Of a stretch of DNA of 64,000 nt, positions 12,389 through 47,914 are shown piece after piece (position 1 is the first letter of the stretch; every line of letters starts with the position of its first letter). The translations under genes and the position numbers were made by a program. This DNA is from Promethearchaeati archaeon (GTDB lineage Archaea > Asgardarchaeota > Heimdallarchaeia > Heimdallarchaeales > Heimdallarchaeaceae). Location of the stretch: the NCBI GenBank assembly GCA_013166775.1, contig JABLTJ010000001.1, forward strand, positions 32,001 through 96,000, written 5' to 3'. The notes beneath the pieces are model-generated. The model did no database searches. It saw only the letters and a list, made by a program, of their open reading frames with translations, and was not told where the DNA came from.

Positions 12389-12511
12389 TGGTGCGGGGAG
12401 GGAGATTCGAACTCCCGAACCACTAAGGAACGGATGACTTTTCTAGCCCTTTTTCTTGGTTTTTCAACTAGATCTTAAGTCCGCCGCCGTTGACCGCTTG
12501 GCTATCCCCGC
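12389..12511 (-). tRNA. tRNA-Leu(TAA) with 38-nt intron at 37/38 (12436-12473), CCA encoded
   Basis: GCGGGGA/TCCCCGC acceptor, GGA-CTTAAG|intron|A-TCC anticodon arm, long variable arm, GGGAG TTCGAAT CTCCC T arm. Confidence 0.95.
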
Positions 12512-17904: not shown

Positions 17905-18013
17905 GGGCCAATAGCTCAGCTTGGTTAGATGTTTAAAGGTTGCGTACCTTAAATTAACAAGCGCACGGCTGATAACCGTGAGGTCGGCGGTTCGAATCCG
18001 CTTTGGCCCACCA
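17905..18013 (+). tRNA. tRNA-Ile(GAT) with 31-nt non-canonical D-arm intron (17930-17960)
   Basis: Removing TGTTTAAAGG...TTAACAA gives a perfect cloverleaf with CACGG CTGATAA CCGTG; CCA encoded. Confidence 0.93.
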
Positions 18014-44346: not shown

Positions 44347-44467
44347 CGTTTCCGTTTTCTAATATAGGAGTAGAAGAAAAGGTTTTCGGACTAATATTGT
44401 TCTAATATTAGCACCTCATGGTAATATTTTTATTACAAACAAATTTACACCTCTATAATCATTTCTT

Positions 44468-44552
44468 GCCAGGATATCCAAGCGGTTACGGAGATGCATT
44501 GGAAATGCATTGCCCTTGAGGCGCCGGGGTTCAAATCCCCGTCCTGGCTCCA
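44468..44552 (+). tRNA. tRNA-Ser(GGA), intronless, CCA encoded
   Basis: GCCAGGA/TCCTGGC acceptor, ATGCA TTGGAAA TGCAT anticodon arm, long variable arm, CGGGG TTCAAAT CCCCG T arm. Confidence 0.93.
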
Positions 44553-44630
44553 TTTTCTAAATAAAATCACGCTTTAAAATTCTCGCTTAAGCAAATACTT
44601 AAAAAAATCATATATGCAGTCTTCTTGAAA

Positions 44631-44735
44631 TCGTTTGTGCTATAATTGAAAGAAAGCACATGGCGAAGCTCGATGGAGAACAACTCTCCCATTCTTGAAT
44701 TAAGAAGTGTAGAGCACTGCAACTTCGGGTTGTGG
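44631..44735 (+). ncRNA. candidate structured leader of the uS13-uS4-uS11 operon
   Basis: Hairpin + three-way junction + hairpin built from consecutive complementary stems. Confidence 0.6.
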
Positions 44736-44761
44736 AATACAAAATAATGAAAAGTGATAAT

Positions 44762-45205
44762 ATGTCATTTCGCCATTTAGTTAGAATTAAGTCTACAGAT
44801 TTAGAAGGGCATCTTCCCGTTTCTCTAGGTCTTTCAAAGATATCTGGAGTAAATAGAAGATTAGCTCAAACAATTGTAAGAACTCTTAACATCTCTTCTT
44901 CTGAACGCGTTGGTTCTCTTACTGATGTAACTATAAAGGAAATTGAAAGTATCATTTCTGATCCAGTCGCTGCAGGAATACCAGAATGGATGGTTAATAG
45001 AAGGAAAGATCGTCAAACAGGTGATAATTTACATATCACTGAGGCTCAGCTTATTCTCCAAACTAAGCAAGATATCGAAAGATATATCCGTATTCGTAGC
45101 CGACGAGGAATCAGACACTCATTTAAACTTAAAGTAAGAGGGCAAAAGACTCGAACCCATGGAAAAAGCGGAACAACCGTGGGTGTATCGAAGAGGAAAA
45201 GATAG
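44762..45205 (+). CDS. rps13: 30S ribosomal protein uS13
   Basis: FRHLVRI, IPEWMVNRRKD, RGIRH..KVRGQKT. Confidence 0.96.
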   Translation: MSFRHLVRIKSTDLEGHLPVSLGLSKISGVNRRLAQTIVRTLNISSSERVGSLTDVTIKEIESIISDPVAAGIPEWMVNRRKDRQTGDNLHITEAQLILQTKQDIERYIRIRSRRGIRHSFKLKVRGQKTRTHGKSGTTVGVSKRKR

Positions 45206-45214
45206 GGTGAGAAC

Positions 45215-46297
45215 ATGGGTGGAATTAGAAGACAAAGAAAGAAAATCATAACTCCTGGTCATCCATATGATCAAGCTCGATTAGAAAGAGAACTCCCCTT
45301 AGTAGGAGAATATGGTCTTAGAAATAAACGCGAATTATGGAAAGCTAGAACCGTTCTCTCAAAAGCTAGACAACAAGCTCGTGGTCTTTTAGCTCTTGAT
45401 CCTGATATCAGAAGCCAAAGAGAAAGAGAACTTCTTTCACGATTATCAAGATTTGGAATGCTTTCAGAAAGTGCTGATTTGGATTCAGTTCTTGCGTTAG
45501 ATGTAAAAACAGTACTTGATCGAAGACTACAAACTATTGTTTTCAGAATAGGTTTAGCTAGTACACCTTATCAAGCTAGACAATTTATTTCACATAGACA
45601 TATTGCAATAGACAAAGGAGTAGTTACATCACCAAGTAGGTTGATAACAGTAAAAGAAGAAAGCGGAATTGCTTATGCTCCAAGATCCCCACTAAATAAT
45701 CCACAACATCCATCTAGACCACAAGCTCCTCCAGTAGTTGAGGAACCTGAAAAAACTGAGAAACCCAGGCCCAAAGCTAAACCTGCTCCTAAGGAAGAGC
45801 AACGTAAACCTGCTCCTAAGGAAGAGCAACGTAAACCTGCTCCTAAGGAAGAGCAACGTAAACCTGCTCCTAAGGAAGAGCAACCTAGGGTAATCGAAAA
45901 GAAAGCAGAGGTTAAACCTAAGGAAGTAGAAAAGAAAGCAGAGGTTAAACCTAAGGAAGTAGAAAAGAAAGCAGAGGTTAAACCTAAGGAAGAGCAACCT
46001 AAGCCCAAACCTACACCTACACCTGAGGTGAAAGAAGCACCAAAAGAGAAAAAACCTCCTGCTAAACCTATCGAGGAGAAATCTAAAGTTGCAACTATAG
46101 CTGATCTTTCTCAGATTGAAGGTATAGGTGCAAAGACAGCAATGCTTTTACAAGATCATGGTTTCAAAACCGCACAAAAAATCGCTGGATCATCAGTTGA
46201 TGATATTACTAAAGTTCCAGGAATTGGCCCAGCTACCGCTGAAAAGATGATCAAGAACGCAAAGGCTCTTGTCAAAAAAGCAGGGGAAGGTAAGTAG
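45215..46297 (+). CDS. rps4: 30S ribosomal protein uS4 fused to a repeat linker and a C-terminal HhH domain
   Basis: [25 protein letters not shown]; C-terminal IEGIG..TA and VPGIGPATA. Confidence 0.95.
45779..45886 (+). repeat. 27-nt in-frame tandem repeat x4 (KPAPKEEQR)
   Basis: aaacctgctcctaaggaagagcaacgt at 45779, 45806, 45833, 45860. Confidence 0.97.
45896..45994 (+). repeat. 33-nt in-frame tandem repeat x3 ([11 protein letters not shown])
   Basis: gaaaagaaagcagaggttaaacctaaggaagta at 45896, 45929, 45962. Confidence 0.97.
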
Positions 46298-46305
46298 GTG
46301 ATTTT

Positions 46306-46752
46306 ATGAGTGAAACAAAAACAGAAAAAACAGAGACAGAAGCTAAAGAAGCTAGACCAAGGAGAAGAGAATCAAAATTCGGTATTGCTCACATTTTTTC
46401 AAGCTATAATGATACTATTGTTCACATTACTGACATCTCCGGTGCTGAAACTTTCAGCCGTAAAAGCGGAGGAATGTTTGTCAAAGCAGACAGAAACGAG
46501 TCCAGTCCTTACGCAGCAATGAAAGCAGCAAATGCAGCGGCACAAGAAGCGCAAAGTAAAGGAGTGTATCAACTATATGTACGTTACAGAGCACCAGGAG
46601 GACATAAAAACCGTACTCCAGGACCAGGAACACAAGCAGCATTACGATCGTTGAAAAGGTCAGGAATGAGAATACTAAGACTAGAAGATGTAACACCTCT
46701 CCCACACAATGGATGCAGAAGAAAAGGGGGCCGTAGAGGCCGTAGAATGTAA
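46306..46752 (+). CDS. rps11: 30S ribosomal protein uS11
   Basis: [31 protein letters not shown]. Confidence 0.97.
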
Positions 46753-46860: not shown

Positions 46861-47028
46861 AGGAAGTACTTTACCCAAGGAAAACGAACCTGTATAGTGC
46901 TGGGAGCAGGGAATACTCTGGAAGAGGTAATTCAAACAGGCTGCAGCAGTATTCCCAAACGCTATTCTGATCCACGATTCAGAATTGATATTGGAATGGA
47001 GTTTATTATTGAGAAAATAGTATTTTGA
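46861..47028 (+). pseudogene. C-terminal remnant resembling phosphoribosylamine-glycine ligase (PurD)
   Basis: KYFTQGKRTCIVLGAGNTLEEV...FRIDIG matches the PurD C-terminal G.TLEEA...R.DIG pattern; in-frame stop upstream, no start. Confidence 0.5.
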
Positions 47029-47914
47029 AATCTTCTGGGGCTATACTTGCAGTTTTGTTTGCAATATCTCTCATTTCCAAATAATGGTCCCTCATACCCG
47101 TTTCTGGATATCTGATATTATAATGCCTGTATCTGACGAATGCTGTGCAAAGTGCACCATATATTGTAAAAGATTGCAAACTATCCATTTCTCTATTACT
47201 GAGATGACGAACAGAGAGATACCCCCTAAGTAATTCCGACATCTTGATAAAATCCAGTTTGGCATCCACTCTGCAGCTCCCCACAAACGCCATACCAATA
47301 TCCATTGCATAAGGGGCAATACAAGCCTCTTCGAAGTCAATTAGGTAATATTTATCGCCCACAATCACATTATCAGCAAAAACATCTGAATGAATAACTC
47401 CCTGTGGAAGATCCATAGGTGGGAAATCAAAGGAATACAACCAAGATTTGAACTCCGGGTTCTTCCAGTGATCTGTCTCGAACCAGTGAGTATGCCCGTA
47501 GGGATGATCAACAGGTAATTGAGTATCTAGGTCAAGGCTATGCAGTTGAGCGATTAAACATCCGAGATCAAATACGCGATCTGACGAGGAAAGAATAGAT
47601 CCAGGTATGAATTTTTTCAAAATAACTGGATATCCCTTGTAATCAACCGAATAACTACCGTCTTCTGAGACAACGGGTTTGTAGGTTTGAAATTGTGCAC
47701 CATTCAGTTGGAGAACAAGATCAAGCACACCCTCGATCTCCTCATGAGATTTCTCATTACAGACTGTAAGAATAAACTCTCCACTGCTACTCTTCAGGAA
47801 GTAGGATGTATTGGCCGCACCTCCATGTATGTACCTGAAATCATGTACATAACAAGCAAATTTTTCAGCAAGAATAGTAATGGTCTTGAAGTTAAGATTA
47901 CTCAGTTTGGCCAT
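47006..47914 (-). CDS. thrB: homoserine kinase type II (APH-like fold)
   Basis: GGAANTSY, LPQGVIHSDVFADNV, IDFEEAC. Confidence 0.75.
   Translation of the reverse strand: MAKLSNLNFKTITILAEKFACYVHDFRYIHGGAANTSYFLKSSSGEFILTVCNEKSHEEIEGVLDLVLQLNGAQFQTYKPVVSEDGSYSVDYKGYPVILKKFIPGSILSSSDRVFDLGCLIAQLHSLDLDTQLPVDHPYGHTHWFETDHWKNPEFKSWLYSFDFPPMDLPQGVIHSDVFADNVIVGDKYYLIDFEEACIAPYAMDIGMAFVGSCRVDAKLDFIKMSELLRGYLSVRHLSNREMDSLQSFTIYGALCTAFVRYRHYNIRYPETGMRDHYLEMRDIANKTASIAPEDFKILFSQ

Follow-up and report, generated by a model that had tools for sequence, protein, structure and literature searches.

A structured RNA leader of the rps13 operon in a family of Heimdallarchaeota, probably a new ribosomal-protein leader

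Introduction

The window analyzed here (the whole stretch of 64,000 nucleotides, to which all positions refer) contains, immediately upstream of the genes for ribosomal proteins uS13, uS4 and uS11, a short segment in which back-to-back RNA stems can be drawn. An initial annotation of the sequence had interpreted this segment as an undescribed leader RNA, by analogy with the uS4-controlled alpha operon of bacteria. Many bacterial examples document how ribosomal proteins feed back on their own synthesis via mRNA leaders, archaea contribute only a handful of cases, and our literature search found no description of a ribosomal-protein leader in Asgard archaea. The locus therefore raises the question of whether the stems are real, to which transcript they belong and what they might do there.

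The leader and its operon

The element (44631-44735) lies between a promoter-like block (44589-44609) and the rps13 start codon at 44762, all on one strand, within a leader of ~135 nt (roughly 44627 to 44761). The same arrangement of promoter, element and rps13 is common to 30 genome loci and 9 metagenome loci. The features of the locus are the following.

44468..44552, plus strand: tRNA-Ser(GGA), the upstream neighbour, with its own T-rich end (ARAGORN; Rfam tRNA, 54 bits)
44589..44609, plus strand: putative archaeal promoter block AAGCAAATACTTAAAAAAATC, with a BRE-like segment and a TATA box at 44599-44606
44627, plus strand: predicted start of transcription, at a purine preceded by an invariant T and ~25 nt away from the centre of the TATA box
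44631..44666, plus strand: H1, the 5'-terminal hairpin, with upper stem TGTGCT (44636-41) / AGCACA (44655-60)
44631-35 / 44662-66, plus strand: lower part of H1, TCGTT/GGCGA; the lower strand is GUC in most relatives
44662..44667, plus strand: 5' strand of the long-range helix P0, GGCGAA, invariant within the genus and continuing straight into P2
44668..44715, plus strand: P2 domain, in which GCUC (44668-71) / GAGC (44712-15) encloses P2a and P2b
44675-44689, plus strand: hairpin P2a, GGAGA/TCTCC, variable
44692-44706, plus strand: hairpin P2b, TTCTT/AAGAA (domain 44690-44709), variable
44717..44735, plus strand: hairpin H4, CTGCAAC (44717-23) / GTTGTGG (44729-35), 7 bp, with a UUCG-type loop in genus g1
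44736..44753, plus strand: A-rich spacer, varying in length and sequence in alignments A1 and A5 and unpaired in folds
44754..44758, plus strand: Shine-Dalgarno sequence GUGAU, matched by the complementary AUCAC at the 3' end of 16S rRNA GGAUCACCUCCU
44754-59 / 44763-68, plus strand: small Shine-Dalgarno/AUG hairpin, GUGAUA/UGUCAU, including the AUG and G.U pairs
44762..45205, plus strand: rps13 (uS13; Pfam Ribosomal_S13, E = 8.8e-32)
44762-44764, plus strand: true start codon of rps13; the protein begins MSFRH and the context AAAGTGATAATATGTCATTTCGCC is conserved
44769..44774, plus strand: 3' strand of P0, UUCGCC, in rps13 codons 3-5 (Phe-Arg-His)
45215..46297, plus strand: uS4 gene, 360 aa; the product has a linker rich in repeats and an HhH domain at its C-terminus (Pfam S4, HHH_5)
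46306..46752, plus strand: uS11 gene, the last of the operon (Pfam Ribosomal_S11, E = 6.8e-43)
47006-47914, minus strand: convergent kinase-like gene of the APH family, after uS11

A uS13 search of related genomes retrieved 24 loci of the same genus (g1; uS13 82-98% identical), with 6 more belonging to two further families within the order. The promoter block, with its TTAAAAAA box at 44599-44606, proved near-invariant in the 24 same-genus loci and recognisable in the alignment of the other four genera of the family (g10 to g13), and it is interpreted as a BRE/TATA promoter by analogy with archaeal promoter architecture. Transcription is predicted to start at ~44627, where alignment A1 has G or A following an invariant T, and the three genes are predicted to be co-transcribed. 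The gaps between them are short, with 9 nt from the rps13 stop to uS4 and 8 nt from the uS4 stop to uS11. Neither a T-run terminator nor a second conserved promoter was seen between the element and rps13. Since a T-run is absent between H4 and the start codon and the conserved promoter lies just 5' of H1, the stems should belong to the mRNA. The claim that the leader precedes uS13-uS4-uS11 thus holds, as the element falls within the predicted 5' UTR of that operon, downstream of the conserved promoter.

The Shine-Dalgarno sequence is conserved 3-4 nt upstream of the start codon in all genera. A GTG at 44732 and an ATG at 44747 were considered as alternative rps13 starts and rejected, neither being conserved. 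An upstream open reading frame from the ATG at 44660 was likewise discarded, since only some species have that ATG. The same tRNA-Ser gene precedes the leader in genera g1, g10 and g12. Rfam also matched two more tRNAs in the window, at 12392-12511 (minus strand) and 17938-18010, neither of which was reported by ARAGORN in its default mode; the former spans 120 nt and is probably intron-containing.

Every stem of the earlier description, i.e., H1, the hairpins of the three-way junction and H4, was found in place. The GC enrichment noted for the segment was also recovered, with a GC content of 0.43-0.45 over 44630-44719 versus ~0.28 in the flanks. As a lone sequence the leader folds only marginally better than expected (z = -2.0, with 6 of 200 shuffles folding equally well), and the case for the structure consequently rests on comparison with relatives.

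Distribution among related genomes

All 24 same-genus loci share the same promoter block, stem order and spacing to the start codon, while the sequences of the stems differ widely. A covariance model (R1) was built from these loci. Searched against the genome from which the window derives, R1 returned exactly one match, the leader, with no second site and no site in rRNA. One match per genome was likewise obtained in 23 of the 24 g1 genomes and in both g10 genomes, always just 5' of rps13. Matches in g11, g12 and g13 (including two closed genomes) were weak (E = 1e-4 to 0.04 in a 31-kb search), yet each was the best match of its locus and occupied the same place. Scanning of metagenomes revealed the element on 9 further loci or contigs. 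The motif was absent from 14 loci belonging to other families of the same order (L025-L030, L141-L148). As judged from these genome comparisons, the leader is restricted to one Heimdallarchaeota family, all five genera of which it covers.

Other conserved sequences were observed before rps13 in family f3. Its genus g3 (L028, L029, L030, L141) has a different conserved leader ~60 nt before the gene: GAUUARG ... CYUUAAUC form a hairpin that contains an inner stem, and the 3' strand of the hairpin directly adjoins the Shine-Dalgarno sequence GAGGUGG. Three loci from other genera of f3 (L143, L147, L148) have in common the motif ACCUGAUCA(C), located 20-60 nt before rps13 and just 5' of the Shine-Dalgarno sequence; given its resemblance to the 3' end of 16S rRNA (GGAUCACCUCC), it may represent an element of the anti-Shine-Dalgarno type. 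Across this order, the leaders of the rps13 operon seem to be specific to individual lineages.

Covariation of the stems

The stems were evaluated in an alignment of 26 homologues, in which 95.4% of cells were paired versus 38-43% when partners were slid by 1-3 columns, and 15 of the 30 pairs showed two-sided changes. This alignment was fitted to the structure model, which favours structure; the slid controls and the folds of individual sequences agree with it. H4 was in addition aligned across the five genera without the model, and all 7 of its pairs covaried (99.3% paired, versus 31-49% in slid controls), with further variants of this stem supplied by the metagenome loci. Two-sided changes were found in 3 of 4 pairs of P2a and 5 of 6 pairs of P2b, and GC/AU and CG/UA swaps in the upper stem of H1 in 6 of the 26 sequences. 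Covariation, which had been suggested as a check on the proposed stems, is thus strong for upper H1, P2a, P2b and H4.

Two parts of the original drawing have to be modified. H1 stands in its upper, covarying stem, whereas the lower part does not: its pairs barely vary and are mismatched in places, most relatives have an A.C mismatch or can form GUC/GGC only, and the same strand competes for a stronger long-range helix to the coding region. A 5' hairpin of differing sequence is nevertheless present in all five genera. As for the three-way junction, P2 and both of its hairpins are present and supported, but the hairpins are not fixed parts. A single short stem substitutes for P2a and P2b together in L020, L024, L149 and genus g13, and the two hairpins are therefore dispensable.

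P2 itself behaves differently from the helices around it. Its GCUC/GAGC pairing is invariant in the 26 sequences, and an alignment of 28 sequences contained one departing cell, UAGC for GAGC in g12. Invariance of this helix amid covarying ones points to sequence-specific recognition rather than to structure alone.

A long-range helix between leader and coding region

A pairing that was absent from the earlier stem description is a new observation of this study. GGCGAA at 44662-44667 is complementary to UUCGCC at 44769-44774, in codons 3-5 of rps13. Each sequence was folded over the interval between the predicted start of transcription and position +21 of the coding region, and this helix, P0, was formed in all displayed g1 folds. 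P0 closes a four-way junction comprising P2, H4, the A-rich spacer and the small Shine-Dalgarno/AUG hairpin, the last of which was 85-93% paired with zero two-sided changes in the 28-sequence alignment. An unguided RNAalifold consensus predicted P0, P2 and H4, and the pair probability of P0 in the present sequence is 0.33-0.72.

All 6 pairs of P0 are intact in 28 of 28 sequences from four genera in a MAFFT alignment, and the substitutions that do occur retain pairing. Genus g10 has GACGAA with UUCGUC, a two-sided change (G to A in the leader, C to U in the Arg codon) that is synonymous on the coding side. In g11 the combination is GGCGGA with UUCGCC, the A to G change in the leader being kept as G.U, and in g12 it is GGCGGA with UUCGUC, where A to G and C to U are both kept as G.U wobbles. 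The Phe-Arg codons of g13 are UUU AGG and cannot pair, and the leader GCGAA is there complementary to a UUCGC overlapping the probable start codon. Only the g10 change is two-sided, because the 3' strand of P0 is coding, a point that we count against an operator. Also counted against an operator is the position of the P0 partner in g11 and g12, ~25 nt past the AUG and beyond the ribosome footprint.

The rps13 start of g13 is itself unusual. The two closed genomes of this genus (L058:1477-1509, L059:1477-1509) have no in-frame ATG near the start of the gene. Downstream of the conserved Shine-Dalgarno sequence GGTGAT, a gap of 4 nt leads to ATT-TCG (Ser), which corresponds to the Met-Ser with which the protein begins in the other genera. 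An AUU start codon is thereby suggested for g13 rps13, the alternative being an in-frame GTG inside the Shine-Dalgarno sequence.

The coding strand of P0 lies in an exceptionally constrained part of the gene. Over 24 species, mean codon entropy is 0.04 bits in codons 2-7 versus 1.00 in the rest of rps13, and five consecutive codons are invariant compared to 10 of 98 comparable columns overall. Arg4 is always CGC in these species, a codon that accounts for 2.3% of arginine codons across the long ORFs of this genome. The block that is best conserved in the leader and the one most constrained in the coding region are therefore complementary to each other. Codons 6-7 (UUA GUU), for which no pairing partner was identified, vary no more than the P0 partner does, an invariance that P0 leaves unexplained. 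Synonymous variation returns abruptly at codon 8 (AGA/AGG and ATT/ATA in codons 8-9, window 44785-44789). The first seven rps13 codons appear to be under constraint at the RNA level, which calls for caution in their analysis.

These data could also be read as stems that are real and a P0 that is coincidental, with GGCGAA retained within a site for protein binding and the constraint on codons 2-7 due to initiation efficiency. We consider this reading a serious, if doubtful, possibility. It draws support from the single two-sided change, from the invariance of codons 6-7 outside P0 and from the negative outcome of the shuffle control presented below. It has to accommodate, however, that the longest invariant block of the leader complements an invariant coding block, where we estimate that a given 6-7-mer would be matched by chance in the first 30 nt with a frequency of ~0.2-0.6%. 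It also has to accommodate that all four substitutions keep pairing, that g13 gains a new partner upon its codon change, and that all 24 species have the rare codon CGC.

Energetics and proposed function

The closed fold of this sequence has a predicted energy of -36.7 kcal/mol, and keeping the region from the Shine-Dalgarno sequence to +14 single-stranded costs 7.6 kcal/mol. This cost is not raised relative to dinucleotide-shuffled leaders (8.4 +/- 2.6 kcal/mol; 176 of 300 at least as high). Since the sequestration energy is ordinary, support for P0 is comparative and not thermodynamic. An alternative pairing of the same segment was seen in g1, g10 and g11, where a 5' GUC can pair with the GGC of P0 and thereby lengthen H1; the G to A change of g10 converts U.G to U-A in this GUC/GGC pairing too. 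The best fold with the coding strand held open uses the extended H1 (-30.2 kcal/mol). These models suggest that the open form may be made first during transcription and the more stable closed form later.

Two further pairings were considered. The 5' GUCAUU can pair with AGUGAU of the Shine-Dalgarno region over 4-7 bp in most species, with no discriminating covariation and a chance expectation that we estimate at ~0.45 such matches per leader; we note it as no more than an idea. Another long-range helix, joining ~44620-44629 to codons 5-7, was set aside, as most of it lies upstream of the predicted transcription start and the pyrimidine-purine pattern there fits an initiator element.

On balance we favour, at slightly more than even confidence, the interpretation that the leader is an operator acting in cis on translation of the uS13-uS4-uS11 mRNA and probably serves ribosomal-protein feedback. 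This is based on its position at a ribosomal-protein operon, its single copy, an invariant junction amid covarying helices, pairing with the start region and the tight coupling of the genes. The leader would act in cis on the initiation of rps13 translation and, via the 8-9 nt junctions, probably on the whole operon. It would fold into the 5' hairpin H1, the P2 domain and hairpin H4, with GGCGAA paired to codons 3-5. In the closed form, P0 would close the four-way junction that holds the hairpin of Shine-Dalgarno sequence and AUG. In the open form, GGC would instead pair with the 5' GUC, extending H1 and freeing the start region. An excess of one of the operon's ribosomal proteins would bind the invariant junction of P0, P2 and H4 and stabilize the closed form. 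Switching, translational effect and ligand are all inferred.

A structured UTR that works independently of any protein could account for part of the same evidence. H1 would then protect the mRNA from 5'-to-3' decay, and the remainder would set a fixed, moderate translation efficiency or a folding pathway for an operon that is highly expressed, with no ligand involved. Such a role agrees with the presence of a 5' hairpin a few nt from the predicted start in all five genera despite sequence differences, with an ordinary energy for opening the start region and with searches in which neither rRNA mimicry nor a second genomic site was found. It sits poorly with the 4-bp P2 and its flanks, which are invariant family-wide while neighbouring helices covary freely, and with a leader-coding complementarity that survives substitutions, and we regard it as rather unlikely.

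Comparison with other RNA classes

That the RNA is undescribed was corroborated by Rfam. A scan of the window at gathering thresholds reported three tRNAs and nothing else, and cmscan of 44350-44850 with E up to 10 returned the tRNA and three chance matches outside the element, i.e., none in the element. The leader gave no covariance-model match to Alpha_RBS or other curated S4 leaders.

A sensor RNA gating the start region appears improbable, be it an RNA thermometer or a riboswitch that responds to an ion or a small molecule. The alternative pairings of one GGC segment and the G.U pairs of the Shine-Dalgarno/AUG hairpin would suit such a device. On the other hand, no Rfam riboswitch class was matched, and each genome has a single copy of the element, confined to a ribosomal-protein operon. 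Its conserved bases are helical (the invariant ones sit in P0 and P2), so that no unpaired pocket is apparent, and the inner hairpins are deletable. Very improbable, in turn, is an independent or processed small RNA (a guide or a tRNA-like molecule) that merely lies between tRNA-Ser and rps13, as the compact multi-stem shape beside a tRNA gene and the GC content above the flanks might suggest, since ARAGORN and Rfam recognise no family, inspection found no box C/D, ACA pocket, k-turn or bulge-helix-bulge, a terminator is absent before rps13, there is pairing between element and coding region, and the g11 and g13 copies are linked to rps13 but not to the tRNA.

Individual structural motifs were rejected on the following grounds. 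For an L7Ae k-turn, the strands GGCGAAGCUC and GAGC-A-H4 (alignments A2 and A5) place, on inspection, no GA opposite GA beside a 3-nt bulge at a continuous junction of two strands. For a bulge-helix-bulge, the strands flanking GCUC/GAGC form no outer helix in most genera, as seen by inspection. For tRNA, box C/D and H/ACA RNAs, ARAGORN and Rfam were negative and no such motif was seen on inspection. A pseudoknot between CGAAG and the H4 loop CUUCG is broken by the loop variants UCCG, UCUG and UGCG while GGCGAA stays fixed, and in other genera the H4 loops GAUAG or AGAAAG likewise break the pairing with CGAAG.

Candidate ligands of the operator

If the leader is a translational operator, uS4 is the default candidate for its ligand, by analogy with the alpha operon, and uS13 and uS11 are candidates as well. 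Possible resemblances to the rRNA were examined. GGCGAAG is also present in 16S h23a, GCGAA/UUCGC is the core of h4 in the 16S of this genome (not so in other genera), and H4 recalls bacterial h16, as in the E. coli sequence. Local alignment of the leader cores of the five genera with their own 16S rRNAs gave similarities within chance, the h4-h16 uS4 site included, and mimicry via h23a, the h4 core or h16 was rejected accordingly.

The initial annotation had also envisaged a role for the HhH extension of uS4, which our data do not support. The uS4 proteins of g11, g12 and g13 are 205-235 aa long and lack HhH, and the leader core is present in all three genera; the extension is therefore not required. 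Genus g1 was the only one in which an entire uS4 with HhH was observed; in g10 the loci stop short of the C-terminus. The linker between the uS4 core and HhH (within window 45715-46297; loci L001-L024) consists of short P/K/E-rich repeats. Repeat unit and number differ between species, giving complete uS4 proteins of 303-425 aa, and assemblies often break or hold N runs at this linker (L020, L024).

Relation to known leaders and significance

In E. coli, the S4 operator structure includes the rpsM ribosome-binding site, and binding of S4 traps the ribosome (PMC10931766). The Heimdallarchaeota leader resembles this system (Alpha_RBS) in lying 5' of a first cistron encoding uS13 (rpsM) in an operon that also encodes uS11 and uS4, in a predicted structure that takes in the start region of that cistron, and in the tight coupling of the downstream genes. 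It differs in its archaeal host, in the gene order S13-S4-S11 and in its fold, which is a nested multi-branch structure closed by a long-range helix, in contrast to the nested pseudoknot of E. coli; a role for S4 is here proposed by analogy.

Lineage-specific S4 leaders before rpsM or rpsD operons have been described in Firmicutes, Clostridia, Fusobacteriales, Bacteroidia and Flavobacteria (Eckert and Weinberg 2020, PMC7247131). They are narrowly distributed and structurally unrelated, and most are without rRNA mimicry (PMC7247131). The present leader is likewise narrowly distributed and recognised by position and covariation. Unlike the Firmicutes and Fusobacteriales S4 motifs, it does not conserve their GUAA, it has no Rfam match and it is archaeal.

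Four archaeal ribosomal-protein leaders are on record, all in Euryarchaeota: two for S15 (Halobacteria and Methanomicrobia), one for eL15 and one for L4 in Archaeoglobi (PMC7247131). With these and with the Methanococcus uL1 operator, our leader would share the nature of a cis-regulatory 5' UTR structure of a ribosomal-protein operon, whereas it sits in a different operon, has a different structure and belongs to a different phylum (Asgard versus Euryarchaeota). Several of the archaeal leaders show clear rRNA mimicry, in contrast to the chance-level similarity of the Heimdallarchaeota leader to 16S. Protein-binding elements with an L7Ae k-turn in archaeal 5' UTRs have been proposed to regulate translation (PMC5539422). 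Both are structures of archaeal 5' UTRs, but the junction of the present leader is, by inspection, without the tandem sheared G.A pairs beside a 3-nt bulge.

Taken together, the leader is probably a new, family-restricted member of the ribosomal-protein leader class. It constitutes a new RNA family that can be added to annotation models, and it bears on whether control of the rps13 operon is ancient or was repeatedly invented. More tentatively, it may be the first autoregulatory ribosomal-protein leader of Asgard archaea, a three-strand switch in which uS4, uS13 or uS11 locks the closed junction and turns the whole operon off. If so, trapping of the start region at the rps13 operon would occur both in bacteria and in the archaeal lineage nearest to eukaryotes, with sister families bearing their own, different leaders at the same operon. 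As Asgard archaea are the closest prokaryotic relatives of eukaryotes, this leader offers a testable entry into how they balance the production of ribosomes.
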